From Nitrososphaeria archaeon (GTDB lineage: Archaea > Thermoproteota > Nitrososphaeria > Nitrososphaerales > JAAOZN01): a stretch of DNA of 64,000 nucleotides. Positions 1,454-16,000 of the stretch are shown piece after piece. Each line of letters starts with the position of its first letter. Position 1 is the first letter of the stretch. The stretch is from assembly GCA_029775855.1 (NCBI GenBank), contig JARVJZ010000004.1, positions 128,001 through 192,000 of the forward strand. Reading direction: 5' to 3'. Made by a program: the position numbers and the translations under genes. The notes under the pieces are model-generated. The model did not search any database. It saw nothing but the letters and a program-made list of their open reading frames with translations, and had not been told where the DNA came from.

Positions 1454-4400
1454 TTACTTGCCTTTGGTTATTCTTGACTTTTTTAGGAGTACTACTATTA
1501 TTGATACTGCTATGAGTAAAATAACTGAGACCAGTAAGGCTAGATTTAAGTTCTCTGGCGCTGAGACCGCAATTTGTGGAGTTGTAGAGGTAGGCGTTTC
1601 ACTTATTGCTTGGGAACTTTCGGTGAATACGCTTTTTTCTCTCTTGGTTTCTATAGTTGTTGTGGTTTCGGTCTTTTCGCTGGCTTGTGTTTTTATAACC
1701 TCTATAGAGCCGCTTGCCTTTAACTTTACGACCGCTAGAACGGGGTCTCCAGTACTCAGAGTAAGAACTATCTCCTTTTTGCCCTCATCGTAAACCCAGT
1801 TTCTTAGCAGTATATATTCTTCTTTCTGCGCAAGGTACTTGAAGATGCCTATTTCATCAGCTTTCTTAACGTCTAATTCACTTATTTTAACACTAACAGC
1901 TACAGATGCTTCATCTGCCTCGATTATATCTAGGAGTAAAAACTTGGCTTTTTCAGCTATTTCGATTACCTTTGACTCTTTGAATGGATTCTCTTGAAGT
2001 TGAGTTATCTGCACCACTATCTTACCCTTTGATTCGACTGTGACACCCAGATTTGAGTGAACTTGCCCTTGACCTACAACAGTTTCACTTTTAGATGTCA
2101 CGCTCCTGAGGGTCAAAACACCAGTAGTAGGCTTTGATAAGGCTACCCCAACAAGAGTAGCGCCGTCTAACCTTAACTCTCCAGATCTAACGACCTTCCC
2201 ATCTAATTCTGCTAAGAACCTAGGCTTCATAACTTCGTCAGACACTAGAACAAGAAAGTTTCTCACACCAGAAAGCTTAATCTTATCGTTTTCAACCTTT
2301 ATAGGCGCATCGGCCCAAACCTCCAACTTACCACCACTGCTATAGTATACTTCTCCACCTTTAGTATCTTCTAGTGAGATTACCGTGGCTGCTACAGTAT
2401 GTCCATCAGCATTCACCTGGAGTACTAAGTTTTCTTTGAGCAGATTTTGATCGACCTCAGCTTCGAAGCTGAATCGTTCTTGGCTTCTAGGCTTTACTTC
2501 TTTTTTATCGGATCTGATTTCGTTATGGCCGTTGGCTAATCCAATATAAACATTCGCTGGCTCATCTCCCAAGTTATGAACGGTAGCTTCGATGCGGGCT
2601 ACCCCTTCTTTTATGCTGATCTCAACATCTTCTTGTCTAAAAACTATCACTGCACGTAATTTCTCAGCATAGCTTCCTGGTTCAGCTCTGCTTACTATTT
2701 GTGCAGCGTCATGTAGCAGCCTAGCCATTTCATCTATGGTTAGTGAGATATAGTACGTGTCTTCGTATGAAAATCTTAATGATGGTGTTGAAACTATTAA
2801 GTTCAAAACGTCTAGGAGCTCTTGGCGAAGAGCCGAGAATAAAGTTAAGTTACCGGCTATTTCGTTTTGCAGCTCGGGTGTAAGAGCTTTTAAGGCTGCT
2901 CTCCTCAACATTAAGTCTGCTGAATTAACTACATCGATGATTAAGTTAAGGTCACTTATACTGTAGCTGACTTGTGATAAGGAAACTAAAAGCCTAGCTT
3001 TAACTTTATTTAATTGTGATGATAAGTCATTTAGGTCTTTGACGTCTTTGTTGTAGTCGGAAAAAAGAGTGGATGGGGAGCCAGTGTTTATCATAAATTT
3101 AGATGGGATGTAAGTCAAAGTTGATTCCAATGGTATAGGTCTAGGTGACTCAAATTGGTTGACAAATAGAGTAGTCTTAGGACTGGCTATACGTAATGTT
3201 ACTAGTGTTGATAGAATTGGTCCGAGAACTTGTGCTGTGTGTATAAGCGCGAAGACAAAAGCTTCAAATTTACTCTCTTGCCCGCCGACGAAAGCGTAGT
3301 ATAGGGTTGGGGTCCAAACCCCCTTTACCGCCATGTCAAACAAACTGCTTAAGATTAAAGCAAGGTAAAGCTTTGCTACTACATCTTTTAAGCCTACTTG
3401 CTTAGTTGTGGTGCCAGCCTTGAAGGTTAGAGGAATGTTCAAAGCCTTTAAGAGTTGGGGGCTTACGGATATGCTTGAACCCATCATCTTCTCGTGTATC
3501 CCATCAAGCCCTCTAGCTATTGACAGTAGGAGTGCTGCAATATTCTGCGCTTTGATTAACACGTCTGCTGTACCATAGAAGAGCTCTTCAGTGTAGCTGT
3601 AGAAGGATGCAGAGGATAATACGCCTTCACGTTCAACCCTACCACTCCACGTTTGAGAGGCTGGCTTTTTGCTTCGTAGAGAAGATAATGGTGAAGTTAG
3701 GCTTTCAAAATCGGCTAGCTCATTCGGATACTTTCCAAGGTTAGGCAGTGAAAGCAGGATTACGTTGTTGAGAGCAGGGATTAGAGGAGAAACTACAGAT
3801 AACACTGGCGTCCCTACAGGGAAATAGGTGTATTGGGAATCGAGCTCGTTCACTACTATTAACTGCATCATCACATTGTAGAGGTACATGAGAGTGTGTG
3901 CTATAAGTGTACTTAAAACTTGAAACATCAATTCAAAACTTAACTCACCTAAAAATTCTCCCATACCGATCAGCGAAGAGTAATAAAATCTTATTAATTT
4001 GAACGAAAAAGCTATAAAAGCAGTGGAGGCTTCTTTACTTCCAAGCATCTCATTAAGGGTTCTGGATATTAAGTCGTTTCCCAGTATATTCAGTAGTGAA
4101 AGTATAGTGCCTTCAGTTACTAGATACGCTATCTTCTTACTGCCTAATATGGTTGCTACTTCTTTTGGTGCGATGTTGGGATACTTCTTAGCGATCTGCG
4201 CAAAAATATTCTTCTGGTTCCAGAATTTAGTATAGCTGAAATATCCTTTAAAGGTCTCTAAGGTCATGGCTAGAGCGAGTATCTTAGAGGTTAGTAGAGT
4301 TGATAATTCAGCATAGAAATAGTTTCTAAGCATTAATCCTTGTAGGGCAACCAGTTTAGCTAGCTTATTCCAGTAGTTAGTTGGGACATCTATATCGGTA

Positions 4401-7400
4401 GGACTTAGCCTGAACTGTGGTAGACTAAGGTTCAGAGGATTATTGAAGACTTCCAGTTCAGTACCCCTAGTCTCTTCTGTGCCTATAGTTGGAAAGATTA
4501 CCCTTGGTCCTATGTACATTAGATCTTCTTGTCTTTTTAAGGTAGTTGCAAAAATTTCTTTAAGAATATTCTTTATGTCTGACTCGCCGCTGAAACGGTC
4601 TAAGGAATTTAAGAGATTTTGAGCAAATCGCAGCATCTGATTTACTATGGTATGGTCAGCAAGTACCATCTTGTAGTTTGGTTCTACAGCAAGTTTCTTT
4701 TGGTAATCAATATAGTATGTGAAAAGTGAGTATGGTAAGTAGAGTTTTACGTCGTAGACCGCAATTCCTTGAGTTTTTTCTTCTTTAGGTATTACAACTC
4801 TAACTCCCGCATCATTAACATTTAAAGTAGGGTATCCTTTAATACCATAAGAACCGAAATATATTGTATAAGATATTCGATAGACCGCATCTTCCTTAAT
4901 ATTCTCATCGTCGTCTAAGGAAACCAGAAGCGGCTTTGAACCCACGCTAAAGCTCTCTATTACTTTGTTAGTCTTGGTGTCGATCAAATTGATAGCTACA
5001 GGTTTGGGTAAGGGTCTCTCAAGCTTTCCGCTATAGATGCTTTCCCTTATAGAAGTGAGAATATTCCTCCTCCAAGGGTTATCTGGGTATCCTAGGTATA
5101 AGTCATACGCAGTGATACGTAAGTATTTTCCAAAGGTGTATATGTCGATCCAGCTCGTGGAATCAGCTCCTCTACTATCCTCCGCTTTTAACCTCAGATA
5201 TAGGAACTTGGGCACATCACCACGTAAGGTTTCATTTAGCTTGCTGTATGAGGGTATCTTAATCTTGAAGTAAGCATATCCAGTTTTATCAGCCTTGCTT
5301 TGCATTTTTGATAGTTGCAGTACAACAGTTTTATTTGTTAGTTCTAACCAACTTTCTAATTTGACTGTAACATCCTCAGAACCTTCACCATAACTTGCGG
5401 TGATAACCTCTACTTCTTCTCCGCTAAGCACTGAATACTTGTCTGGAATTATAAATAAGATCTTACTTTCTCTCTGATACACAGAGGCTTCGGCTTCTCC
5501 ATATGGGAACTCTAATATTGTGTTTACATAAACTTCACCCCCAGAAAACATTAGAGGTGTGTAGGTATTGTTTTGCCGTATTATTTGCCCCATCCAAGCG
5601 AAGATGGCATATTGTGTTTCGCCCTGTTCAACTTGGTTTATCGTATCTTTGTCGACGAATGCTCTATTTAGATATAACTCAGCGTATAACGGAAAAGTCC
5701 TAAATACACCTTTAACAGTAGCGTTGACATATCCTAGTGGCTCACTACTAATTTTGTAGGCCTCAGATTTTTGTTCATGGCTTACTCCGGTGAGATAACT
5801 TTGGTAGGTGGTGGAGCGATCTTCTGCAAACTGCATAAGGACATTAACAGACGGTGGCTTATTATACAGGTAGAGCAGAAGGTCTATCTTAGAACTTGAC
5901 TGGAAGACATCTGAGCTTCTACTTTCATCCCACACTATCTCGTCTTTAAAGAACGCTCTACGCTCTCTTAATGAGTAAAATTTATTATAGTCTATCTCCT
6001 TTGAAACTATCTGAGCTTCTGGTGGGAGTTCAACCTTTTCTTGGATAAAATAAGACTCCCCAGTATAAAGAACTTTTTGGTAACGCTTAAAGTGCATCTC
6101 ATGTGAATACATAATGCATTCTAATGATGTAGCTTCAATCGCATAACCAGGTGGAGCAGGGTTAGGCAACCATCCTCCAACCTTAACTAATCCGCTAACT
6201 CGTGTCTTGGCTTGGGCTTCCTCCACTTCAATACCTAGAGGATTCTTACTGTTCTTATAAAGAGATTGCGCGTGATTATAAAGAATTCCGACATTTAAAA
6301 GTAAAGCCCCATCATCTGCATAACCCGCCTTATTAACACTTAACCTTGTATAGGTAGTGTAGGAGCCGTCGAACTTCACCTGCGGAGTTTCAACGGTATC
6401 GGAGAACGTCTTAAGGTCGTAATGAACATGCTTGAGAAATGCTTGAAATCTTTCAGGCCCTACCTCAACTTCGAAATTAAAGGTTAGCTTAAACCTTTCT
6501 TTTGAATCCGATATGGTTAAGCTGACAATATCATTCCCTTTGTAGACCTCTGGATCAATTATGTAGAAGACTGCGGTGCTAAGGAAGAAACTTTTCATGT
6601 CATTGATAAGCAAGTCTATAGTTTGGTTATGCTTTGTAGTAGCTGCTCCTATAGGCTGGAAGATTCTGGTTTTATTCTTATTCCAAAAGACATGGTGTTT
6701 ATATTCACTAAGATACCGTTCCATCTCCTCCTCAGTCCACTTAACGTGGATTATAGCGCCTGAGGGGTTAGGGGCAACTATATGCTCGTAGTCGGCAGGC
6801 GCGGCTGGAATGAAGTAGCCTACCTTACCCTCTGTGCTCCATGAGACCGTTAAATGAGAATAATAAAGATCATCTACCGGTAAAGAGCCCAACAAACTCA
6901 TTAAATCGTTCGGAAAAGGAATACTCCTCCTTTCACCCTTCAATATACTCCTAACAACACTCAAGATGTTAACCTGTTTGAAACCTAAGGATAGGAGAAG
7001 GCTCTCACCCTTAGGTATCTTCACAGCCCCGCGGTTTGGTATCGTAAGATAAGTGTAAAGCGCTTCAGGGTATTCCTCGTAAACACTTTCAACTGGGAAT
7101 GAAATGTGATAAAACATCACATCGCCTTCTTGGTAAAGAGTGTACATGTTCGGTTTAAGAGAGTCTGGGATATAGCCTCCCCACAACAAGTATTGATCAA
7201 ACTTAATCTTATCTATGCGATAAGTTAGGTTATAGGGCTCACGACCTATCGTAATAGGTCCGACCTTTTTCCAGCCGGGGAAGGAGATGTTTAGCAAGAA
7301 GTAATCTTTGCCCTTGTAGAGATAATTTGTAATATAGTCTAGGTATGTAGGTCTACTTTCAGCCTTCCAAAACTCCAGTGCACCTAAAGGTTCACTAAAA

Positions 7401-7618
7401 CTTATTGGTGGGTCTATAACCTTGCCTAAGCTTTCGTAAGGCAAGCCTCTAAATACAAACATTCCGTTGATTATTAAGTTGTTTGAAAGCCAATTTCTTA
7501 ATTGAGTGTATGGGTCATCTAAGGCCACCGCTAGTGGTGAAGATAAATTTGATAAAGCCAACATAAATATGAGCGATGATGCAGCTAGTTTTAGCGTATG
7601 GTTCTTCATCTCACACAT
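1454..7618 (-). CDS. Very large (2054 aa) secreted, C-terminally membrane-anchored surface protein of unknown function
   Basis: N-terminal signal peptide; beta-rich regions including a CARDB/Ig-like segment (IEATVHNLGDEPANVYIGL); internal hydrophobic helical block; Ser/Thr linker, TM helix and basic tail. Confidence 0.75.
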   Translation of the reverse strand: MCEMKNHTLKLAASSLIFMLALSNLSSPLAVALDDPYTQLRNWLSNNLIINGMFVFRGLPYESLGKVIDPPISFSEPLGALEFWKAESRPTYLDYITNYLYKGKDYFLLNISFPGWKKVGPITIGREPYNLTYRIDKIKFDQYLLWGGYIPDSLKPNMYTLYQEGDVMFYHISFPVESVYEEYPEALYTYLTIPNRGAVKIPKGESLLLSLGFKQVNILSVVRSILKGERRSIPFPNDLMSLLGSLPVDDLYYSHLTVSWSTEGKVGYFIPAAPADYEHIVAPNPSGAIIHVKWTEEEMERYLSEYKHHVFWNKNKTRIFQPIGAATTKHNQTIDLLINDMKSFFLSTAVFYIIDPEVYKGNDIVSLTISDSKERFKLTFNFEVEVGPERFQAFLKHVHYDLKTFSDTVETPQVKFDGSYTTYTRLSVNKAGYADDGALLLNVGILYNHAQSLYKNSKNPLGIEVEEAQAKTRVSGLVKVGGWLPNPAPPGYAIEATSLECIMYSHEMHFKRYQKVLYTGESYFIQEKVELPPEAQIVSKEIDYNKFYSLRERRAFFKDEIVWDESRSSDVFQSSSKIDLLLYLYNKPPSVNVLMQFAEDRSTTYQSYLTGVSHEQKSEAYKISSEPLGYVNATVKGVFRTFPLYAELYLNRAFVDKDTINQVEQGETQYAIFAWMGQIIRQNNTYTPLMFSGGEVYVNTILEFPYGEAEASVYQRESKILFIIPDKYSVLSGEEVEVITASYGEGSEDVTVKLESWLELTNKTVVLQLSKMQSKADKTGYAYFKIKIPSYSKLNETLRGDVPKFLYLRLKAEDSRGADSTSWIDIYTFGKYLRITAYDLYLGYPDNPWRRNILTSIRESIYSGKLERPLPKPVAINLIDTKTNKVIESFSVGSKPLLVSLDDDENIKEDAVYRISYTIYFGSYGIKGYPTLNVNDAGVRVVIPKEEKTQGIAVYDVKLYLPYSLFTYYIDYQKKLAVEPNYKMVLADHTIVNQMLRFAQNLLNSLDRFSGESDIKNILKEIFATTLKRQEDLMYIGPRVIFPTIGTEETRGTELEVFNNPLNLSLPQFRLSPTDIDVPTNYWNKLAKLVALQGLMLRNYFYAELSTLLTSKILALAMTLETFKGYFSYTKFWNQKNIFAQIAKKYPNIAPKEVATILGSKKIAYLVTEGTILSLLNILGNDLISRTLNEMLGSKEASTAFIAFSFKLIRFYYSSLIGMGEFLGELSFELMFQVLSTLIAHTLMYLYNVMMQLIVVNELDSQYTYFPVGTPVLSVVSPLIPALNNVILLSLPNLGKYPNELADFESLTSPLSSLRSKKPASQTWSGRVEREGVLSSASFYSYTEELFYGTADVLIKAQNIAALLLSIARGLDGIHEKMMGSSISVSPQLLKALNIPLTFKAGTTTKQVGLKDVVAKLYLALILSSLFDMAVKGVWTPTLYYAFVGGQESKFEAFVFALIHTAQVLGPILSTLVTLRIASPKTTLFVNQFESPRPIPLESTLTYIPSKFMINTGSPSTLFSDYNKDVKDLNDLSSQLNKVKARLLVSLSQVSYSISDLNLIIDVVNSADLMLRRAALKALTPELQNEIAGNLTLFSALRQELLDVLNLIVSTPSLRFSYEDTYYISLTIDEMARLLHDAAQIVSRAEPGSYAEKLRAVIVFRQEDVEISIKEGVARIEATVHNLGDEPANVYIGLANGHNEIRSDKKEVKPRSQERFSFEAEVDQNLLKENLVLQVNADGHTVAATVISLEDTKGGEVYYSSGGKLEVWADAPIKVENDKIKLSGVRNFLVLVSDEVMKPRFLAELDGKVVRSGELRLDGATLVGVALSKPTTGVLTLRSVTSKSETVVGQGQVHSNLGVTVESKGKIVVQITQLQENPFKESKVIEIAEKAKFLLLDIIEADEASVAVSVKISELDVKKADEIGIFKYLAQKEEYILLRNWVYDEGKKEIVLTLSTGDPVLAVVKLKASGSIEVIKTQASEKTETTTTIETKREKSVFTESSQAISETPTSTTPQIAVSAPENLNLALLVSVILLIAVSIIVVLLKKSRITKGK

Positions 7619-7867: not shown

Positions 7868-9688
7868 ATGTGCATCAATTTGAGCGTCAAGCATCTTTTA
7901 TCAAGGAGGCAGACTCTTGCCGTCCTCCTTACAATTGCGATTATTGGAGGGTTACTTTTCATTCCTCAAGCATCCGCCATCAGGGTGGAGATAAGCGGTA
8001 TAACCAGCGGTGAAACTATAACGCTTGGTGTAGTTAAAGAACTTGAGTTTAGGATAGTTGTGGAAAGCGGCGAAGTGGTGCCTGTGCAAGAGATACGTGT
8101 AGTCATAGATGGTGTGCAATACACAGCTCCACCTACTGGTGGTGACCTAACACCAGCAAACAGCATCATACCAACAATCACACTAGTTACACCACCACCA
8201 GGCTACTTCTACTCAGCAAGCTACGGCTACGGATACGGATACCTCTACGGATACGGATATGCATTCGGATATGGATACAGAGCTCTCTACGGCTACGGTT
8301 ACGGATATGGTTTCACATCTGGCAGCCAGATAAGGTATTCAGCATCACTCTACACATCATATCTAAGTTTAGGCAGCCACACAATAAGGGTTGATGTAGC
8401 GACTGGTCTCCAGCCCTCAAACATATTCTCCTCACAGACCATATCGTTCACGTTAGTATCCCCGCCTACACCTACACAACCAGCACCATCAGCACCACCA
8501 ACAGCGTCTGATCTCGAAGCTATGTCTGCTGAGGAGAGGGCTGCACAACTTACACAGATGAATGCATCTGACGCAGCAAATAGAATTGAGCAGATGAGCG
8601 TAGACAAAGCTGTAGAAGCAATAAAGGCGATGAACGCTACAGACGCAGCAAGAATACTTAACCTCGTCAACACAACTAGAGCTGCTCAAATCCTAGCCAG
8701 ATTAACCGTTGAAGAAGCGGTTAGAATTACACTTAACCTCAACGTGGACAAAGCTGCAGACGTCGTTTTAACGATGGATGTAAGAGAAGCCGCGCCGGTA
8801 GTTGAGGGAATGACTAGGGAGAATCTGCATAGGGCTGCTCAAGTAGTAGATAATATGATTGCTAAGGATGCTGCAGGCGCAGCTAGAGTTATAGATGAAC
8901 TACCTCCAGACGTGGCAGCTGATCTACTACTCGAGATAGCTGGGTTGCCCTCAACACCTGAGAAGGCCGCTATGCTCATAGATGCGATGAGCTTAACGAA
9001 GGCTGTTGACGCCGTAAAGTCGATTATAGCATCCAACAAGATGCAGACACTCGCACAGATACTCAGCCACGTATCAACAAGCAGACTCAACGAAATATTC
9101 AAGCAGCTCTCATCTAGTGAGAGGCTCAGAACCCTACCATATCTCGACGCAGCGACACAAGCTAGGTTGAAACACGTAAAGGCGACCTTGACAGTAGAAA
9201 GGGTGGATGCACAGCCGGGCAGCTCAGTCAAAGTTAGGTTGGCCCTATCATCTACTCAACCCATACCTGAAGGCTCTGTATCATTCAGCATCCCAGCCGC
9301 TTTCAAGACAAAAGCTCTATCTGTTGAAGGGCTACCTGGAACATCTGCAAGAGAGGCTACTAGGCTCATAGTCACTAAGTTGGCTACTCAACCATCATAC
9401 GCAGCTGCTTCAGTCGCATTCGACTTGGTTGTGCCACTTAACGCCAGCGTCTCGGTTGGGCAGATTGTCACGGTAGTTGCGTCGGTGAACGTGCCAGACT
9501 TTGCTGTAAGCTTTGACACACCAACAGCGGTAAGTGTGACTGTGGTTAAACCTACGGTGCAGAGCATATTCAGCGCCTTAAACTCCTACTTCGATAAGAC
9601 AGTAAGCGTATACACTGAGGGAAGAGTGCCTGTGAAGCAAGACATATACAGCTTACTGGACTTCTACTTCAGAGGGAGAGTGGATTAA
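7868..9688 (+). CDS. Secreted multidomain protein: Tyr-Gly repeat, MgtE_N-like helical repeats, cohesin-like beta domain, C-terminal dockerin-like duplicated motif
   Basis: Signal peptide ending PQASA; GYGYGYG tract; ~12-aa periodic helical repeats (DAARILNLVNTTRAAQILARL); duplicated IFSALNSYF / IYSLLDFYF at the C-terminus. Confidence 0.65.
   Translation: MCINLSVKHLLSRRQTLAVLLTIAIIGGLLFIPQASAIRVEISGITSGETITLGVVKELEFRIVVESGEVVPVQEIRVVIDGVQYTAPPTGGDLTPANSIIPTITLVTPPPGYFYSASYGYGYGYLYGYGYAFGYGYRALYGYGYGYGFTSGSQIRYSASLYTSYLSLGSHTIRVDVATGLQPSNIFSSQTISFTLVSPPTPTQPAPSAPPTASDLEAMSAEERAAQLTQMNASDAANRIEQMSVDKAVEAIKAMNATDAARILNLVNTTRAAQILARLTVEEAVRITLNLNVDKAADVVLTMDVREAAPVVEGMTRENLHRAAQVVDNMIAKDAAGAARVIDELPPDVAADLLLEIAGLPSTPEKAAMLIDAMSLTKAVDAVKSIIASNKMQTLAQILSHVSTSRLNEIFKQLSSSERLRTLPYLDAATQARLKHVKATLTVERVDAQPGSSVKVRLALSSTQPIPEGSVSFSIPAAFKTKALSVEGLPGTSAREATRLIVTKLATQPSYAAASVAFDLVVPLNASVSVGQIVTVVASVNVPDFAVSFDTPTAVSVTVVKPTVQSIFSALNSYFDKTVSVYTEGRVPVKQDIYSLLDFYFRGRVD
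8222..8311 (+). repeat. Tyr-Gly coding repeat (YGYGYGYLYGYGYAFGYGYRALYGYGYGYG)
   Basis: Degenerate GGN-TAY hexamer array with synonymous variation. Confidence 0.85.
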
Positions 9689-9689
9689 G

Positions 9690-10616
9690 ATGAATAAGTT
9701 ATGCTTTAATAACTTGACTTCATATGGATGTGCGGGTAAAGCCTTGAAGATATACACCTATACAGCTTTAGCGATTCTTATACTTGCCTCAGTATTGACA
9801 TTCCTACCTAACGTATATTCAGCGCAAGCAACAGCTGCCTTCAATCTCTCAGATGGTTTGATTAAGGTTGAAGTCACAAGCCCGGTAGAAGTCTATCAAT
9901 TTCAACTCTCAATAACTCTACCTAGTGGTGCAACCATCAATGCTGCGCAAGCATCTACCACGGGCTTCATGGAGAATGCGGTCTTCCTGCAGGTGGGCAA
10001 TGAATATAGGTGGTTCAATCTTGACGCAAAACCATCGAAGGTAGGCTCATTAACCGTGCCAGCTTCTGGAGTAGGTGTAGACAACTTACCTCAGCTGCAG
10101 CTAGTAAGATTGGATCTGCTGGACGCGGGTGGAAATAAGATAGATCTTCAGCAGACATTACCGCTAAAGGCTACACTGGCACCGATTACAGTGACAACTA
10201 CGGTTAGGGAGACTATAACCACGACAACAACCGTAACCCAGACAACAACGCGCACAACCACAGTAACACAGCCTACAACAACCACACTCACATCAACCAT
10301 AACGCAGCCGACCACAATTACAACTACCTCTACAGTCACACAACCAACCACAGTCACAATAACGGTTACTTCAACAACAACTCAGCCAACAACAGTTACC
10401 GCGACATCTACAACTACAGCAACCGAAGTCAAAACCACAACTCAGACAACTACATCAACATCCACATACACAATAACTAGAACAGAGCTAGCAACTACAA
10501 CGGCCTACAAAGAGATAACCGTAGACACAACACCATACATAGCAGGCATCGTTATACTGATAATTATAATCATCATCCTAGCGATCCTAATGCTTAGACG
10601 CAAAGCAGCGGTCTAA
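9690..10616 (+). CDS. Membrane-anchored protein with cohesin-like N-terminal domain and Thr-rich stalk
   Basis: Signal peptide; beta-sandwich pattern (VYQFQLSITLP ... LVRLDLLDAGGNKI); ~110-aa Thr-rich QPTT repeats; C-terminal TM helix plus RRK; starts 1 nt after the upstream stop. Confidence 0.65.
   Translation: MNKLCFNNLTSYGCAGKALKIYTYTALAILILASVLTFLPNVYSAQATAAFNLSDGLIKVEVTSPVEVYQFQLSITLPSGATINAAQASTTGFMENAVFLQVGNEYRWFNLDAKPSKVGSLTVPASGVGVDNLPQLQLVRLDLLDAGGNKIDLQQTLPLKATLAPITVTTTVRETITTTTTVTQTTTRTTTVTQPTTTTLTSTITQPTTITTTSTVTQPTTVTITVTSTTTQPTTVTATSTTTATEVKTTTQTTTSTSTYTITRTELATTTAYKEITVDTTPYIAGIVILIIIIIILAILMLRRKAAV
10190..10530 (+). repeat. Thr-rich coding repeat (TQPTT units), probable glycosylated stalk
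   Basis: ACN-codon-rich low-complexity tract with four TQPTT units. Confidence 0.8.
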
Positions 10617-10644
10617 ACCCCAATTTTTTAAACTTAGATAAAAG

Positions 10645-10717
10645 TGCGGGATGCGGGATTCGAACCCGCGACCACCAGCTTGGGGGGCTGGTATCCTAAC
10701 CACTAGACCAATCCCGC
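10645..10717 (-). tRNA. tRNA-Gly(CCC), intronless, C at position 33
   Basis: Full cloverleaf; acceptor GCGGGAT/ATCCCGC with A73; anticodon arm CCAGC-CCCCCAA-GCTGG; T loop TTCGAAT; TTTAAA box ~26 nt upstream. Confidence 0.93.
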
Positions 10718-10754
10718 CACATTAACTTCCCCTTCAGCCTCCTTTAAACCGTTA

Positions 10755-10779
10755 CTCCCTTCTTTCTCAAGGAAGGGAG
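10755..10779. repeat. 11-bp inverted repeat between the divergent tRNA promoters
   Basis: CTCCCTTCTTT-CTC-AAGGAAGGGAG, with one G-T pair. Confidence 0.55.
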
Positions 10780-10833
10780 AAGATACTGAGAAGTAAAATC
10801 TTTAATCAAGCATTTCAGTAGCTAGAGTGAAGG

Positions 10834-10968
10834 GCCGCGGTCGCCTAGGCTAAACAAGGGGGAGACGCTAAATGCCCCAGCTCGGTAGGGCGCAGGCCTG
10901 GAGCCTTAGTCCAGCTTGTTAGCCTGTGACCCGCAAGGGTCTCGAGGGTTCAAATCCCTCCCGCGGCG
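10834..10968 (+). tRNA. tRNA-Ser(GGA) with a D-loop insert (10849-10880) and a 37/38 intron (10904-10920)
   Basis: Acceptor GCCGCGG/CCGCGGC with G73; long variable arm GACCC-GCAA-GGGTC; T arm GAGGG-TTCAAAT-CCCTC; removing both inserts gives a normal Ser cloverleaf with loop CTGGAGA. Confidence 0.88.
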
Positions 10969-11036
10969 CTCTCTATTAAGAAGCTGGTTAATATTAAAGA
11001 TATTTAACGATTTAGGGAACTTTACTACTTATTATA

Positions 11037-11072
11037 GTTAATTAATTAATTAATTAACAAAAAATTTATATT
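11037..11072 (+). promoter_or_regulatory. G(TTAA)5C perfect palindrome followed by an A-rich BRE and TATA box (TTTATATT) of the nuclease cassette
   Basis: 22-bp palindrome at 11037-11058; TATA at 11065-11072, ~25 nt before the ATG at 11097 (leaderless spacing). Confidence 0.6.
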
Positions 11073-11096
11073 TCAGATGCGCTCTTACTCAGTTCT

Positions 11097-11366
11097 ATGA
11101 ATTGGAAGGCGTCGAGTAAAGATTTCCGTGAAGAATTAGAAAGAATCTTCCAAGAAGGCGAGCGTAAAGGCTTACAATATGTAGATGTTATTTCAGGTGA
11201 GCTACATAGGAGAGTAGGTGGGTACCCCGGACGCAATCATAGAATGCCGCTCTGTTGTCACGTTATGCGAAGTATGATGCAAGAAGAAGATGAAGTGCTT
11301 GCTGAGCCGCCTAAAGGTAATGGGGCTACCCTAAAGATAAGGTATAGATTGCCAAGGAGGGTTTGA
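11097..11366 (+). CDS. Small conserved protein with GGYPGxNHRMPxCC motif (recalled as a nuclease-associated domain)
   Basis: ELHRRVGGYPGRNHRMPLCCHVM ... PPKGNGATLKIRYRLPR; first gene of a tight operon. Confidence 0.7.
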   Translation: MNWKASSKDFREELERIFQEGERKGLQYVDVISGELHRRVGGYPGRNHRMPLCCHVMRSMMQEEDEVLAEPPKGNGATLKIRYRLPRRV

Positions 11367-11367
11367 A

Positions 11368-11841
11368 GTGAGGATTCTTATAGTCGTACCTTGCGGGAAG
11401 AGTAAGATCTGGGATGTAGACCAGGACAGAGGGCCGACGAGGGCAGAGGAAGCATACACTGGAGGGCCGTTCAAGGTTAATCGGGCGTTTGCAAAGAGAT
11501 TCGCCGATAGATGGGTGATCCTTTCAGCTAAATACGGTTTCATAGACCCGTCTTTCACTATCCTCGAAAATTATAACGTGACATTTAAAGACCCTTCTAC
11601 TAACCCGATAAGTTTAGAACAGCTAAGAAGCCAGGTGGATGAGATGAAGCTGGATGCATACGATGTCGTGATAGCCTTAGGCGGCAGAGATTACACATCA
11701 ATAGTCAAGAGGTGTTTTGGCGATAAAAAGAAGGTGATATGCCCAGCTGAAGGGCTGCCGGTGGGTAAAGCTATGGGGTGCATCAGTAATCTTACAAATC
11801 TCGACAGAGAGGAGATGCTAAGGGAGATAGGTTTGTGTTAA
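11368..11841 (+). CDS. DUF6884-like protein
   Basis: IVVPCGKSK ... AEEAYTG ... WVILSAKYGFIDP ... ENYNVTF ... LGGRDY ... GLPVG pattern. Confidence 0.75.
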   Translation: MRILIVVPCGKSKIWDVDQDRGPTRAEEAYTGGPFKVNRAFAKRFADRWVILSAKYGFIDPSFTILENYNVTFKDPSTNPISLEQLRSQVDEMKLDAYDVVIALGGRDYTSIVKRCFGDKKKVICPAEGLPVGKAMGCISNLTNLDREEMLREIGLC

Positions 11842-12482
11842 TGTGGAGAAATTCTGTGGAAGAAATCTGTAGATGTGTACATGAACTTATCAGCTCACTG
11901 TCAGCGTACTCTAATCCCAGTCAAGTGTCTTTCACCAATGGCCTATACTTCTTTTACGAGAAGGGGGAAGTGTCCATTCATGCACCCAATGGTCGTGTTG
12001 TTAGAGTAGGTAATCACCCATATTCAAGCAATGGTTTAAAAAGGCGCTTGCAGCTCCACTACTCTGGAAACAAGAATAGCAGCGTGTTCCGCAAGTTCCT
12101 TGGAGGAGCTTTAATGCGTAGAGAAAACCCTGCACATCCATGTTTACCTCATTGGGAAAAGCAAGGCCAACCTACCTGCAAAGTATGCAGGAAGGTCGAA
12201 GAAGATGTTTCAAATCTTCTAAGAGCTAACTTCTACTTCCGATGTGTAAAGATCGAGGATAAAGGGACGCGTAATCTTCTTGAGAAAAAGCTGATAGCCA
12301 CAATCTCTTCATGTAAGATATGTAAGCCGTCTGGAAATTGGTTAGGGAGGTACGCATATTCAGATCTTGTTAGAAGTTCTGGTTTATGGAACTCTAATTA
12401 TGTTTATGATGGGGATTGGGTTATGTCAGCAGAAGATTTAAATTTGCTGCGTAATCTGATACAGTTAACGCGTGTAAGGTAA
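11835..12482 (+). CDS. Divergent GIY-YIG-type nuclease with Cys-rich (Zn) insertions
   Basis: GLYFF ... VRVG ... LKRRLQLH ... NKNSSVFRK ... LEKKLI ... SGLWN; CKVC and CKIC motifs. Confidence 0.65.
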   Translation: MLMWRNSVEEICRCVHELISSLSAYSNPSQVSFTNGLYFFYEKGEVSIHAPNGRVVRVGNHPYSSNGLKRRLQLHYSGNKNSSVFRKFLGGALMRRENPAHPCLPHWEKQGQPTCKVCRKVEEDVSNLLRANFYFRCVKIEDKGTRNLLEKKLIATISSCKICKPSGNWLGRYAYSDLVRSSGLWNSNYVYDGDWVMSAEDLNLLRNLIQLTRVR

Positions 12483-12634
12483 TGACAGCGCAGAGCCGTA
12501 TTGTTCTTTGCAGCTATTGTAAGAGAAGAAGGGCGGAATATGACATTGGCAGCGAGGTTTATCTATGCAAGGAATGTTACGAGGAGTGGCACTTTAACGC
12601 TTTTCAACAGATGAGTGAATTCAGCTTATTCTAA
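12482..12634 (+). CDS. 50-aa zinc-finger microprotein (not in the ORF track)
   Basis: TAATG stop/start overlap with the nuclease gene; MTAQSRIVLCSYCKRRRAEYDIGSEVYLCKECYEEWHFNAFQQMSEFSLF (CxxC-x15-CxxC). Confidence 0.6.
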   Translation: MTAQSRIVLCSYCKRRRAEYDIGSEVYLCKECYEEWHFNAFQQMSEFSLF

Positions 12635-13851
12635 CGATACACCGCTCTTTTTGAACGATCAACACCCACTGGAAGCAGAAGTATAACGCTTAAGACCATT
12701 GCCGCTGCTGAAAGTGTAAAGGCTGGGCTATAGCTACCCATAGACTCACGTAGAAAGCCCGCAACAATAGGAGATACTGTAGCACCGATACCGTAAAATA
12801 AGGTCCATAAGCCGATTACTGATCCAGACGACTTCTCCTCAAAATACTCTGAAGCGCAAGCTGCATATATAGGGAACATAGACGCATAAAAGATGCCGTA
12901 CATAATGGCTAAGAGCATCAGTAGATGGAGACTTGCTCCAATAGCAACCATGCTGTAGATTGACACTGCGACACCAAGGTTGCAGAGGGCTAAGCCTTGT
13001 ATTCGACCTATTTTGTCTGATAGATATGGGAGGATTAGACTTGCGGGGATGCCGCTGAAGGCAACGGCGCTAGCCAGTCCTGCCGAATAAGCATAATCTA
13101 TTGAGAGATCTATGTTAAAGTATGCTACCATAAAGGTCATCGTGGTGCTTGTAGCGAAGGCTATAGCAAAGTATGATGAGGCTATGAACCAGAACGTTCC
13201 TGATGATAAGATTATTTGAGTTGCTTCTTGTGTTCTAAATTCTCTTCGTCTATCCGTTGATTCTTTTTCTTTTAGGAGAAGCGCTGAGGCTGCAGCTAGT
13301 GTTAGGGTGAAGACGCCCATTAGATACCATCCATGCTGCCAACCATAGGTGTCTACAATTATTGGCAGCAGTAAACCCATCAAGCCGTATCCAACACCAT
13401 AGCCTGAATTCACTACTCCTATTGCTCTACCTCTCTTCTCAGCTTTAAACCACATAGTAACAAGCCTTATGATTGCAACCCATCCAGCGTGTGAACCAAC
13501 CCCGACGAGCGCGAATAAGAAGACTCCTAGAGACCACTCTTTAACAGAACCCATCATAAATGTGCCGAACCCCATCACCACACAGAGCAGCGGTATAACC
13601 TTCTTGCAGCCAACTCTATCAACCATGAAGCCTATCAGTGGCGCTGATAGCGTATATGAGAGGAAATAGGCGCTTGCTATAAACCCGCTCTGAACATCTG
13701 TCAAATTTAGAGAAGACTTCATCGGCGGTATTAGAATACCGTATCCAAACCTTATGCCATATGATGCGAGCACAAGAAGAAAACCTACACCAAGTATCAC
13801 ATAACCCCAGTAAAAGCGCTTGAGCATCCTCTTGTATGAGAATAGACCCAT
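12631..13851 (-). CDS. MFS transporter
   Basis: ~12 TM helices; GFMVDRVGCKK and YLSDKIGR motif-A loops. Confidence 0.9.
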   Translation of the reverse strand: MGLFSYKRMLKRFYWGYVILGVGFLLVLASYGIRFGYGILIPPMKSSLNLTDVQSGFIASAYFLSYTLSAPLIGFMVDRVGCKKVIPLLCVVMGFGTFMMGSVKEWSLGVFLFALVGVGSHAGWVAIIRLVTMWFKAEKRGRAIGVVNSGYGVGYGLMGLLLPIIVDTYGWQHGWYLMGVFTLTLAAASALLLKEKESTDRRREFRTQEATQIILSSGTFWFIASSYFAIAFATSTTMTFMVAYFNIDLSIDYAYSAGLASAVAFSGIPASLILPYLSDKIGRIQGLALCNLGVAVSIYSMVAIGASLHLLMLLAIMYGIFYASMFPIYAACASEYFEEKSSGSVIGLWTLFYGIGATVSPIVAGFLRESMGSYSPAFTLSAAAMVLSVILLLPVGVDRSKRAVYR

Positions 13852-13905
13852 TAGATTAAGTTTCTCTTTTTAATAAAAATATGAAGTGGGTAGGTTTTCT
13901 TTATG

Positions 13906-14679
13906 CTACCTACCCTTAAAGACAGGCTTCCTCTTTTCCAGAAACGCTCTCATAGCCTCCTTTTGATCCTCAGTTGTGAAGAGTGGAAGCTGCTCGAGCT
14001 GCTGGTAAAGTAGCCCATCGTCGATCTGCATCTCTCCACCAACATTGATGGTCATCTTGATGGCGCCGATTGCCTTTGTCGGCCCGTTTGCTAATTGATT
14101 GGCGATTCTAAATGCTTCTTCAAAGAGTTTATCTGCTGGAACGACCCAGTTGACTAATCCAAGCTTCTGAGCTTCCCAAGCTGATATTGGATCTGGGAAG
14201 AAGAGGAGCTGCTTGGCCTTTAATCTGCCAACCCATCTAACTAGAAGCTGGGAGATTCCTGCGCCTGGTGAGATTCCTACGCCTACCTCTGGGTTGGCTA
14301 ATCTTGCGTCATCAGCAGCAACGATGAGGTCAAAGCCGTTCAGCATATCCATTACGCAGAAGCCGTTGACCGCAGCTATAATCGGCTTCCTCAGCCTCAT
14401 CATATATTTGTAGAGCTCTATCATTTTGCCGTTAAACTTGAGCATGAATTCTGGGGTTGCATCTTTGAACTCCTGTAAGTCGCCACCAGCATTAAAGTTC
14501 CTACCAGCAGCTGTGAATAGTATGGCTCTTACACTATCGTCTTCACCGGCTCTGTGCATGGCATCCCAGAGCTCAGAGACCATCTGAGAGTTGACTGCAT
14601 TATTCACCTCAGGTCTATTCAAAGTGATTATAGCAACGCCGCCACGCTGCTCATACTTGATAGTCTTATACTCAGACAT
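13906..14679 (-). CDS. Enoyl-CoA hydratase/isomerase (crotonase family)
   Basis: ITLNRPE, FNAGGDL, KPIIAAVNG, PEVGVG, FLEKRKPVFKG. Confidence 0.92.
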   Translation of the reverse strand: MSEYKTIKYEQRGGVAIITLNRPEVNNAVNSQMVSELWDAMHRAGEDDSVRAILFTAAGRNFNAGGDLQEFKDATPEFMLKFNGKMIELYKYMMRLRKPIIAAVNGFCVMDMLNGFDLIVAADDARLANPEVGVGISPGAGISQLLVRWVGRLKAKQLLFFPDPISAWEAQKLGLVNWVVPADKLFEEAFRIANQLANGPTKAIGAIKMTINVGGEMQIDDGLLYQQLEQLPLFTTEDQKEAMRAFLEKRKPVFKGR

Positions 14680-14761
14680 AGCGCATCGTTAAGCATTTAT
14701 CAAAAGGGTCTTTTTAGCCTTTCGACTAAAAGGTTAAAGCATCTTATGTCTTTCAAAATCT

Positions 14762-15460
14762 ATGATGCAGAGGGCTAAGGTAGGTACATCTGGATACAGC
14801 TACTTTTGGAACTTAGGTGTGCCTACACCCTTTGAGTGGTATGTTAAACAAGGCTTTAACACAGTCGAGATCAATGCAAGCTTCTACCGTTTTCCCTCTC
14901 CAAGCTGGATCAAGGCTTGGAGTAAAGCGCCCTCAGGATTTGATTTCTCCGTTAAGGTGCATCGCTCTCTAACACACTACGCTAAGCTTTCAGAGAAAGC
15001 AGTAAAGCTTTGGTATATCTTCAAAGATCTGTTCAAACCTATTGGGGACAGAATTGCTTTCTGGCTCTTTCAGATGCCTCCAAGCTTTACACCAACAGAA
15101 AAGAACCTAAAACGCATTAAAGCCTTCTTCAACACGCTGCATCTAGGCTCATCAGCTGCTGTTGAATTTAGGGATCCCGCGTGGTGGAGCGTTAAAAATG
15201 ATTTAAAGGATTGTGAGGTTACTTTCTGCTCAGTAGATGCACCTTTTCTGCCGAGAGAAATAGTCTGTCTGAGTGATGCGCTCTATCTTAGGCTTCACGG
15301 TAGAGAAGAGTGGTACGCTTACACATATAGTAGGCGTGAACTTGAGGAGATTGCGAAGCGGGTTAAAGAAGCGCAAACAGAGAGAATATACATATATTTG
15401 AACAACGACTTTGGTATGCTAGAGAATGGCAAACTTCTACTGAAGCTTTTAGAAGAGTAG
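14762..15460 (+). CDS. DUF72 family protein
   Basis: VGTSGY, VEINASFY, FQMPPSF, EFRD, YLRLHG, YLNND. Confidence 0.92.
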   Translation: MMQRAKVGTSGYSYFWNLGVPTPFEWYVKQGFNTVEINASFYRFPSPSWIKAWSKAPSGFDFSVKVHRSLTHYAKLSEKAVKLWYIFKDLFKPIGDRIAFWLFQMPPSFTPTEKNLKRIKAFFNTLHLGSSAAVEFRDPAWWSVKNDLKDCEVTFCSVDAPFLPREIVCLSDALYLRLHGREEWYAYTYSRRELEEIAKRVKEAQTERIYIYLNNDFGMLENGKLLLKLLEE

Positions 15461-15505
15461 GGTTAACTTTATCTACAATAAATAAGGTAATCATGCTGTA
15501 TTACT

Positions 15506-16000
15506 TTGGCGCGCAGACGCATATTTCTACTCGTACTTCTCGCTCTGATAGGGGTTGCTGCATCAGGCTCAGCATCAGCTATGGGCAAAGAAGAAGCGAA
15601 TAAGATGCTAGAAGATGTGAAAAAGAGTGTACCCTCTTCGCCAAATATTATAGACATATTCACTAACAACCTTAGAGTAGCTCTGCTTATGCTAATACCA
15701 GGATTAGGGCTTATTCTAGCACCCTATGTGCTCTACAACACAGGATTGGTCTTCGCAGCCACAGGTGTAGTGAATGGTGTACCCGGTTTAATGCTTCTTT
15801 TGGCAACAGCTATTTTACCCTTTTTTTGGCTTGAGTTCGTAGCGTATGCCACATCCACCACGCAGAACCTATATCTGATATGGGCGATTAAGTCCAAGAC
15901 TCTTCGCTATGAGCTACGAAACCTTGGCTACAGCTTACTTATGATAGTACTCTTACTTCTGTTAGGCGCTTGGATAGAAACGCTCTTTCTATCTTCTTAA
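15506..16000 (+). CDS. SpoIIM/DUF95-like membrane protein
   Basis: IFTNNLRVAL, LYNTG, LPFFWLE, LGAWIET. Confidence 0.8.
   Translation: MARRRIFLLVLLALIGVAASGSASAMGKEEANKMLEDVKKSVPSSPNIIDIFTNNLRVALLMLIPGLGLILAPYVLYNTGLVFAATGVVNGVPGLMLLLATAILPFFWLEFVAYATSTTQNLYLIWAIKSKTLRYELRNLGYSLLMIVLLLLLGAWIETLFLSS

Follow-up and report, generated by a model that had tools for sequence, protein, structure and literature searches.

A DUF6884–putative nuclease pair of the PDC-M57 candidate type with an added upstream HRMPxCC gene in a Nitrososphaerales archaeon

We analyzed a 64,000-nucleotide (nt) window from a Nitrososphaerales archaeon (assembly GCA_029775855.1, contig JARVJZ010000004.1, positions 128,001 to 192,000) containing a compact cassette of four plus-strand open reading frames (ORFs), found at 11097–12634 in the ORF list of the window and labeled here P1 to P4; all coordinates are positions in this window. 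By profile match, P2 and P3 are the two components, PDC-M57A and PDC-M57B, of the PADLOC candidate defense system PDC-M57, and the two genes lie on the same strand and overlap by 1 or 7 nt. The first-pass annotation of this DNA could not match the cassette to a named system; since both proteins match PDC-M57 profiles, a named and catalogued candidate does exist. The explanation we favor, with a probability of roughly 45%, is that an accessory copy of PDC-M57 was acquired horizontally, with P1 added upstream as a third module, and that it works as a restriction-type module sensing modifications or lesions. P1, P2 and P3 are real genes, and P4 is an ORF without support.

P2 is a DUF6884 protein, as had been proposed, matching Pfam PF21818 with an E-value of 2.8e-15 and 57.1 bits against a gathering cut-off of 30. 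It also matches PADLOC PDC-M57A (PDLC04712) with an E-value of 2.7e-12 and 45.2 bits over profile positions 1–134 of 138, and gives weak PADLOC matches to DpdC (E 2e-4). The protein carries the motifs CxxxK (C9–K13) and LSAxxG (L52-S53-A54-x-x-G57), both named in the DUF6884 passages of PMC11701544, and each of 19 sequences compared keeps C9, K13, S53 and G57. The same passages describe DUF6884 as a YaaA-like domain with a positively charged cleft, place the member YfjM among the proteins found to interact with abasic and ribonucleotide lesions, link YaaA to oxidative stress, and present an AlphaFold 3 model in which a base is flipped into the CxxxK/LSAxxG site, where the Pfam authors suggest an active site (PMC11701544). 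DpdC, a protein of the same superfamily, converts preQ0-DNA into ADG (7-amido-7-deazaguanine)-DNA (PMC10164549). P2 is likely a base-flipping DNA reader or enzyme.

P3 matches PADLOC PDC-M57B (PDLC04713) with an E-value of 7.1e-39 and 131.6 bits over positions 3–207 of 211, where more typical relatives reach up to 211 bits, and additionally matches PDLC04714 (E 4.1e-20). Sequence searches recovered 267 P3 homologs, and all 120 of those listed carry a precomputed PF26468 assignment. Across 45 sequences, nine residues (G36, Y38, Y41, R57, G59, R71, H75, E122 and E150) either never vary or reach a conservation of 90% or more, E45, R54, H61, R146, C160 and C163 are further conserved positions, and the first motif G36-L-Y38, within the sequence G-L-Y-F-F-Y, fits the GIY element of GIY-YIG nucleases. 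An AlphaFold 2 model of P3 built from the 45 sequences has a predicted local distance difference test score (pLDDT) of 95.9. A Foldseek search of the model against the Protein Data Bank (PDB) returned no match at E ≤ 0.001, comparison of the P3 profile with the sequences of solved structures gave nothing useful, and in an exhaustive structural comparison 20 of 48,161 chains reached Z ≥ 2. The top match is T4 EndoII (Z 5.6, root-mean-square deviation 3.4 over 103 residues), accompanied by the UvrC N-domain (Z 5.3), I-TevI (Z 5.2), Eco29kI (Z 4.8) and the 5-hydroxymethylcytosine (5hmC)-specific defense enzyme PD-T4-3 (PDB 9u75, Z 3.8). Ranks 1–3, 5 and 6 are GIY-YIG nucleases (Z 5.6–3.8), and the P3 model has the core of that fold. 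Rank 4 is a plant glutaredoxin N-domain (Z 5.1), which we take to be GIY-YIG-like, and lower ranks include HIGLE, Slx1 and Hpy188I, so that in this model-based comparison the list of matches is specific to one fold despite its modest scores. Together with a sub-threshold similarity to Pfam GIY_YIG_2, these ranks bear out the earlier description of the third protein as divergent GIY-YIG-type, and P3 probably has nuclease activity and is the likely effector. As a separate observation, five of the nine members of a 90%-identity P3 cluster (P0393–P0397, from sibling genomes) are called only from an internal methionine, as proteins of 122, 122, 122, 168 and 170 amino acids (aa).

The letter M in the name PDC-M57 presumably stands for multi-gene, a meaning consistent with a passage of the preprint behind the candidate list. 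According to that preprint (Payne et al., bioRxiv 10.1101/2024.01.29.577857), the genes that gave rise to the PDC systems were situated inside BREX, DISARM and type I restriction-modification (RM) loci; the name PDC-M57 itself appears in no searchable paper, and the main text of the preprint does not contain it. We compared 27 loci carrying P3 relatives, which span Bathyarchaeia, Thermoplasmata, Nitrososphaerales, Methanomassiliicoccales and Desulfurococcaceae among archaea as well as Acidobacteriota, Chloroflexota, Planctomycetota, Bacillota and others. The matched ORF hits PDC-M57B at 26 of these loci, the match at the other (L019) running off the contig end and being unscanned. A YaaA-superfamily partner is adjacent, within 1 kb or fused at 23 of the 27 loci, recognized by Pfam at 15 (E ≤ 1e-3), by tblastn at one (L021), by PADLOC DpdC at one (L017), and at six by local jackhmmer only, with E-values that refer to a small database (L018, L023, L027, L028, L035 and L038). 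No such partner was found at L014, L016, L026 or L029, and the neighbors of the P3 homolog at L014 and L016 show no similarity to the DpdC-like partner of L017. Gene order within the pair varies, and the partner measures ~135 aa or ~250 aa and is sometimes a full DpdC- or YaaA-like protein (L017, E 7e-28; L015, L022 and L039).

P1 joins this pair at only one of the 27 P3 loci and, counted from the P1 side, at 10 of 80 P1 loci, and P4 is never conserved. The four-gene cassette described at first is therefore not conserved as a whole; its conserved core is the P2–P3 pair. A further PADLOC family lies within ~1.8 kb (E ≤ 1e-5) at 10 of the 27 P3 loci, and these neighbors comprise type I and type II restriction, DndH/DndE-like, DpdB/DndB-like, CARF, PDC-S09 and Cas4-like genes. 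With PADLOC neighbors also present at 17 of 36 P1 loci, relatives of the cassette genes frequently have restriction or other defense genes as neighbors. Two DUF6884/PDC-M57B pairs in which both genes are split or truncated (L038, 3569–4613; L035, 3771–4759) adjoin type I or type II restriction genes and look like decaying copies.

P1 belongs to an unnamed family, here called HRMPxCC, that comprises 991 representative clusters (50% identity) at E ≤ 1e-3 and has no Pfam entry. P1 itself has no match in Pfam, NCBIfam, PADLOC or PHROGs at E ≤ 1, and 118 homologs are of similar size (48–156 aa). The AlphaFold 2 model of P1 (pLDDT 89.6) has the topology H-E-H-H-E-E (H, helix; E, strand), and its best fold matches are winged-helix proteins at middling scores (Z 5–6.4; RctB, GntR, MarR, Z-alpha and BrxR); Foldseek against the PDB returned no match at E ≤ 0.001, and a search of solved-structure sequences with the P1 profile gave no significant hit (best E 0.1, to unrelated proteins). 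In a 45-sequence alignment, on which all P1 conservation figures here are based, the conserved residues are H37, G41, Y43, P44, G45, H48, R49, M50, P51, C53 and C54, and these cluster at the turn between helices 2 and 3 and at the start of the third helix. This conserved turn suggests a fixed ligand or metal site, and P1 probably either reads DNA or a ligand or serves as an adaptor. Some P1 homologs are named '5-methylcytosine-specific restriction protein A' or 'HNH endonuclease' in the JGI, NCBI and Atlas collections; we rejected an HNH/McrA identity for P1, which has no HNH motif, no Pfam match at E ≤ 1 and a model topology that is not that of HNH.

Domain fusions tie the P1 family to the P2–P3 pair and to other effectors. 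Among 102 long P1-domain proteins scanned, 27 contain DUF6884 or YaaA-like domains, five contain DUF4145, two each contain HEPN, NucS_C and HTH_3, one each contains TIR, DUF499, ASCH, DpnI_C (P0264) and an EndoIII iron-sulfur motif, and 55 show nothing. With local profiles, the 147 top P1 representatives include 33 stand-alone proteins, 26 fused in either order to P2-like domains, three tandem P1–P1 proteins and two fused to P3. Single polypeptides combine all three modules in three different orders, namely P1–P3–P2 (L020), P2–P3–P1 (P0145) and GIY_YIG_2–DUF6884–P1 (P0191). These triple fusions and the gene pairs bear out the statement, made on first inspection, that HRMPxCC and DUF6884 domains co-occur or fuse with nucleases. 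P2 and/or P3 lie near P1 at 10 of the 80 closest metagenome loci, and at 3 of the 23 loci whose two flanks each extend for 1.5 kb or more, and a PADLOC match (E ≤ 1e-8, within ~1.3 kb) is present at 17 of the 36 P1 loci with usable flanks, the families including GmrSD-like HEC-05, BrxL, pVip and CARF. P1 is a promiscuous defense-neighborhood domain that sometimes joins PDC-M57 and is not a fixed part of it.

Two further observations concern the P1 family. A recurrent trio, the most striking of these gene neighborhoods, consists of an HNH_2 protein (311–328 aa), a stand-alone 85-aa P1-like gene and a UvrD helicase–PD-(D/E)XK nuclease (954–968 aa), and is found complete at metagenome loci L052 (498–4635), L068 (2034–6148) and L122 (1988–6192) and in part at L059 and L085; it looks like another unnamed nuclease–helicase defense candidate. 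In a viral-contig collection, the P1 domain occurs on 20 loci (L129–L148) and the P3 family on one (L128).

P4 probably lies outside the system, and whether it is a gene at all is doubtful. It gives only weak matches to zinc-ribbon Pfam families (E 0.02–0.15), a word search found no homolog, and its exact sequence is absent among ~15 billion predicted proteins in which P2 and close sibling-genome forms of P1 and P3 are present. In the Atlas it falls in no named family, its look-alikes being unnamed clusters at 0.92–0.93, and no comparable ORF with two CxxC motifs follows the P3 homolog at 29 loci. The ORF occupies the space between P3 and a convergent major facilitator superfamily (MFS) gene. 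Of the proposal that a zinc-finger microprotein forms the fourth gene, the CxxC pair and the TAATG overlap with P3 are there, but a homolog or a counterpart at the 29 loci is not.

Coordinates of the cassette and its surroundings are collected in Table 1. P1 and P2 are separated by 1 nt. The overlap of P2 and P3 depends on the P3 start codon, measuring 7 nt with GTG 11835 and 1 nt, within TAATG, with ATG 11841; a 213-aa P3 form (P0392), encoded on a 210,287-base contig that also carries the window's own P2, fits the ATG start. P3 and P4 share the same TAATG type of overlap. The ORFs and junctions of the four coupled same-strand genes initially described are thus present, although the fourth lacks support as a gene. 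Contigs from two RNA libraries of one study (X9 and X10) cover 11506–12394 and 11645–11954 at 95–99% identity and span the P2/P3 junction; P1 and P4 are uncovered, and the contigs carry no information on transcript ends. Identical or nearly identical proteins are recorded as coming from metagenome-assembled genomes of Nitrososphaerales, and the sequencing runs that contain cassette DNA are hot-spring metagenomes.

Table 1. Features of the cassette and the adjoining region in the 64,000-nt window
Feature	Position	Strand	Description
tRNA-Gly(CCC)	10644..10717	-	ARAGORN; Rfam tRNA 67.7 bits; conserved pair with tRNA-Ser
tRNA-Ser(GGA)	10835..10968	+	Manual reading; two introns; variable segment begins after its 3' end
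Variable segment	10969..14761	.	Relative to same-genus genome G003; cassette, MFS transporter and enoyl-CoA hydratase
TATA-like box TTTATAT	11065..11071	+	Behind an A-rich run, ~26-32 nt before the P1 ATG; pattern match only
P1	11097-11366	+	89 aa; stand-alone HRMPxCC domain, no Pfam family, predicted winged-helix-like
P2	11368-11841	+	157 aa, GTG start; DUF6884 protein, PDC-M57A, YaaA/DpdC superfamily
P3	11835-12482	+	215 aa (GTG 11835) or 213 aa (ATG 11841); PDC-M57B
P4	12482-12634	+	50-codon ORF, CxxC...CxxC; possible zinc-ribbon microprotein, gene status unproven
MFS transporter	12631-13851	-	Pfam
Enoyl-CoA hydratase	13906-14679	-	Pfam

The cassette begins just beyond a tRNA-Ser gene that is recognizable once its introns are taken into account. 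One intron lies in the D-loop, with borders that are not fixed, and the other is a 17-nt intron in the anticodon loop at 10904–10920. On the raw DNA, ARAGORN calls a tRNA-Thr at 10874–10969 and Rfam finds no plus-strand tRNA at the site at E ≤ 0.1; after in silico excision of 10904–10920, ARAGORN calls tRNA-Ser(GGA) in 99 of 500 splice candidates, with the 17-nt intron in each of those listed. With this reading, the P1 ATG lies 128 nt downstream of the manually read tRNA-Ser, and the stated spacing of ~130 nt therefore holds. An AT-rich palindromic run, (TTAA)n at 11032–11063, lies just upstream of the TATA-like box. The box attributed to the cassette is present as a motif, as a sequence pattern alone, and its position would give a leaderless or short-leader mRNA.

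Comparison with the same-genus genome G003 defines the borders of the inserted segment. The tRNA-Gly/tRNA-Ser pair of G003 is 80% identical to that of the window, and the similarity ends at the tRNA-Ser 3' end, just past 10969; the G003 gene next to tRNA-Ser, encoding a DUF72 protein, has a 71%-identical counterpart at window positions 14765–15454. The variable segment therefore extends up to this counterpart and contains the MFS and enoyl-CoA hydratase genes, so the view that housekeeping genes resume straight after the cassette holds in part only. We also considered a tRNA-integrated mobile element and rejected it: no integrase or transposase family was detected among the neighboring ORFs scanned, and no direct repeat of the tRNA 3' end occurs within 10600–16000, where only short, chance-like repeats were seen. 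No methyltransferase family was detected among the 20 other ORFs that span 90 aa or more and have their start below position 26000, in line with the original statement that none is present, four of these ORFs, including a 353-aa and a 2054-aa ORF, having no Pfam match at 1e-5. P3 occurs in 1 of 41 genomes of relatives, the window's own, and in 1 of 29 among those at least 90% complete, and the P1 domain occurs in 2 of 401 genomes sampled across the phylum. The cassette is accessory and, as anticipated, not core in its relatives.

Three other features of the region stand apart from the cassette. On the other side of the tRNA-Gly/tRNA-Ser pair, contig C37 of G003 carries a minus-strand ORF of more than 445 aa that runs off the locus end (L002, 2–1336) and has a motif read as S-adenosylmethionine methyltransferase-like; it may be an RM gene, in which case it would suggest that the tRNA pair is a recurrent insertion spot. 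In the window, the 2054-aa ORF (1454–7618, minus strand), without a Pfam family at E ≤ 1e-5, lies upstream of two threonine-rich/repeat-rich ORFs (7868–9688 and 9690–10616), taken as surface-type by inspection. A Hef-like protein at 25725–27884 on the minus strand (DEAD-box helicase, ERCC4 nuclease and helix-hairpin-helix (HhH) domains) is taken as an ordinary archaeal repair gene.

The mechanism we propose builds on the family memberships, folds, linkage and fusions, accessory distribution and defense-gene neighborhoods of relatives described above, from which we infer that the proteins would bind DNA, sense bases, act as a nuclease, form a complex and counter viruses. P1 to P3 would be read as one operon from the TATA-like promoter just after tRNA-Ser. 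P2, with its conserved Cys–Lys pocket, would scan DNA and flip out non-canonical bases, either hypermodified viral bases or lesions, and P1 may act as a second, dimer-prone reader or as an adaptor of a type that recurs next to many unrelated nucleases. Once foreign DNA is recognized, P3 would cut it. The arrangement resembles type IV restriction in that putative sensor and nuclease modules are separate, as gene pairs and as fusions, with no methyltransferase among the 20 neighboring ORFs; in modification-dependent enzymes, catalysis and sensing are commonly divided between different domains (PMC6765204). Sensing of modified or damaged bases followed by GIY-YIG cleavage, as first suggested for the cassette, is thus a plausible scheme.

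Several observations weigh against this restriction-type interpretation. The PDC list comprises 145 systems that its authors, where they introduce it, call untested (10.1101/2024.01.29.577857). P3 scores 14.8 bits against GIY_YIG_2 (PF20815), below the cut-off of 22.4 (E 0.029), its structural Z-scores are modest at no more than 5.6, and its second motif, V56-R57-V58-G59, has an invariant arginine where tyrosine is usual. An hhalign comparison of the P3 alignment with the GIY_YIG_2 fusion P0191 was not significant, covering only 17 columns around the GIY motif at a probability of 0.4. No other known defense gene lies near 17 of the 27 P3 loci, and in the window genome the neighbors of the cassette are metabolic and transport genes, so that the cassette is not in a defense island there. 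P1 occurs without P2 or P3 at 70 of the 80 closest metagenome loci and at 20 of the 23 with flanks of at least 1.5 kb; it is therefore not specific to the cassette system and could be a regulator. The shortened sibling P3 forms may reflect decay, with a broken N-terminal half, or equally artefacts of calling or assembly. The RNA-library contigs are a weak hint that P2–P3 is transcribed, as DNA carry-over into such libraries is possible. Finally, a repair role fits the lesion binding of DUF6884, the sole experimental hint for that family.

One alternative concerns P1 alone and is possible, if doubtful: P1 may be a small winged-helix transcription regulator that restrains nuclease operons, like RM controllers or BrxR-type proteins. 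Its predicted winged-helix topology, with GntR, MarR and BrxR matches at Z ~5, its place as first gene of the operon, the palindromic run just upstream of the TATA-like box and the occurrence of stand-alone copies beside many different nucleases all fit such a role. However, H37, G41, Y43, P44, G45, M50 and C54 are almost invariant across contexts, unlike in operator-specific regulators, the domain is frequently fused to DUF6884, HEPN, TIR, NucS_C, DpnI_C and even a separate HTH_3, and tandem P1–P1 copies exist.

We consider it unlikely that P2 and P3 form an RM-like pair in which P2 chemically marks host DNA, P3 cuts unmarked DNA and P1 serves as a controller or specificity factor. A small first gene before a nuclease resembles RM controller proteins, GIY-YIG type II restriction enzymes exist, with Eco29kI and Hpy188I among the structural matches of P3, and P2 has invariant C9 and K13 at what the Pfam authors suggest to be an active site. 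DpdC, from the superfamily of P2, modifies DNA bases in an RM-like system (PMC10164549). DpdC nevertheless needs preQ0 inserted by DpdA/DpdB, and no tRNA-guanine transglycosylase/DpdA- or DpdB-like gene was detected in the cassette or among the scanned neighbors; the cassette also shows no cofactor-binding or methyltransferase-like domain, and single-polypeptide reader–nuclease fusions are typical of modification-dependent enzymes, though known in some RM enzymes.

A DNA repair or lesion-processing module, in which P2 recognizes abasic sites, ribonucleotides or oxidized bases and P3 nicks beside them like UvrC or T4 EndoII, is likewise improbable. Such a module could be useful in a hot-spring organism, the habitat of the cassette-bearing sequencing runs, and the lesion interactions of YfjM and the oxidative-stress link of YaaA, in the account given by PMC11701544, point the same way, as do the UvrC N-domain among the best P3 fold matches and the ordinary genes that neighbor the cassette in the window genome. 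A repair role sits poorly, however, with the patchy distribution of P3 (1 of 41 relatives), the wide spread of the P2–P3 pair across phyla, the origin of the candidate in genes situated inside BREX, DISARM and type I RM loci as the preprint presents it, the frequent restriction and other defense genes near relatives, and the fusion of P1 domains to HEPN, TIR and NucS-type effector domains. Also improbable is an extended version of our own explanation, a three-protein modification-dependent restriction machine in which two unrelated readers, a DpdC-like base-flipping P2 and an as yet undescribed, probably metal-binding winged-helix P1, would jointly license the GIY-YIG nuclease against viral DNA with hypermodified purines such as 7-deazaguanine derivatives, with HRMPxCC as a portable immunity sensor reused with HNH, UvrD-PD-(D/E)XK, GmrSD, HEPN and TIR partners. 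Last, a selfish cassette without host benefit, made of a free-standing GIY-YIG homing- or addiction-type endonuclease and DNA-binding helpers, is very unlikely: I-TevI among the P3 fold matches, the small insertion at a tRNA 3' end, the decayed or split copies (L038 and L035) and the shortened sibling-genome P3 calls would suit it, but introns, inteins, integrases, transposases and target-site repeats are all missing at the locus, the conserved partner resembles a base-reading enzyme more than a typical homing-endonuclease DNA-binding domain, and viral contigs hardly ever encode the P3 family (one locus in the collection).

The cassette can be compared with several known systems. It shares with PDC-M57 both profiles, on adjacent, same-strand and overlapping genes, and differs from it in the upstream stand-alone HRMPxCC gene and the orphan zinc-ribbon ORF. 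CMoRE/PD-T4-3 (PMC12923530; PDB 9u75) is a single-protein GIY-YIG type IV restriction enzyme for DNA containing 5hmC or its glucosylated form 5ghmC. Like the cassette as we presume it to work, it couples a GIY-YIG-type nuclease to a separate modification-sensing module, and in both nucleases the GIY motif is followed by an additional aromatic residue; CMoRE, however, is one polypeptide with a C-terminal sensor and has no sequence-level match to P3, whereas the presumed sensors of the cassette are separate proteins with unrelated folds. END nucleases join an inactivated EndoIII base-flipping repair domain, used as sensor, to a nuclease (PMC12191111, a preprint). The logic proposed for the cassette is the same, a repair-type base-flipping reader that has been turned into a detector of non-canonical bases and works with a nuclease, but the folds differ (HhH/EndoIII and phospholipase D in END; YaaA-like DUF6884 and GIY-YIG in the cassette), and the END activity has experimental proof while that of the cassette is predicted.

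The individual putative readers also have known counterparts. For P2 these are YaaA (DUF328, PF03883) and DpdC of the Dpd 7-deazaguanine system; P2 has weak matches to DpdC, and DpdC acts on a base within DNA; P2 is, in contrast, half the size (157 aa versus ~300 aa), has no DpdA/DpdB nearby, and is partnered with a nuclease whereas DpdC belongs to a modification arm. P1, with its predicted winged-helix-like fold, is comparable to the winged-helix readers by which restriction enzymes recognize modifications, such as the DpnI C-terminal domain (PF17726), to which the family member P0264 is fused; PMC12191111 also mentions modification-dependent enzymes whose sensor domains are winged helices. 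P1 differs from such winged-helix readers in having neither a sequence match nor a significant profile match to solved structures and a distinctive conserved turn rich in His, Tyr and Cys, and its DNA binding is putative.

The initial description of the cassette was largely correct as to what is present and broadly sound in its interpretation, although it missed the existing catalogue entry and made too much of a four-gene unit. The cassette is a three-part variant of a catalogued candidate whose core is already listed by PADLOC, and PDC-M57 is itself one of many computed defense candidates, with a putative function. The P1 module travels with the P2–P3 pair often enough to have been fused to it in three orders, and the most useful new point is this link of the unnamed HRMPxCC family to DUF6884, GIY-YIG and other defense nucleases. 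If P1 is merely a regulator, the cassette would be an ordinary variant of a listed candidate; if P1 senses modified or foreign DNA, it would be a new reader domain for modification-dependent restriction and would provide a handle on what DUF6884 proteins recognize.

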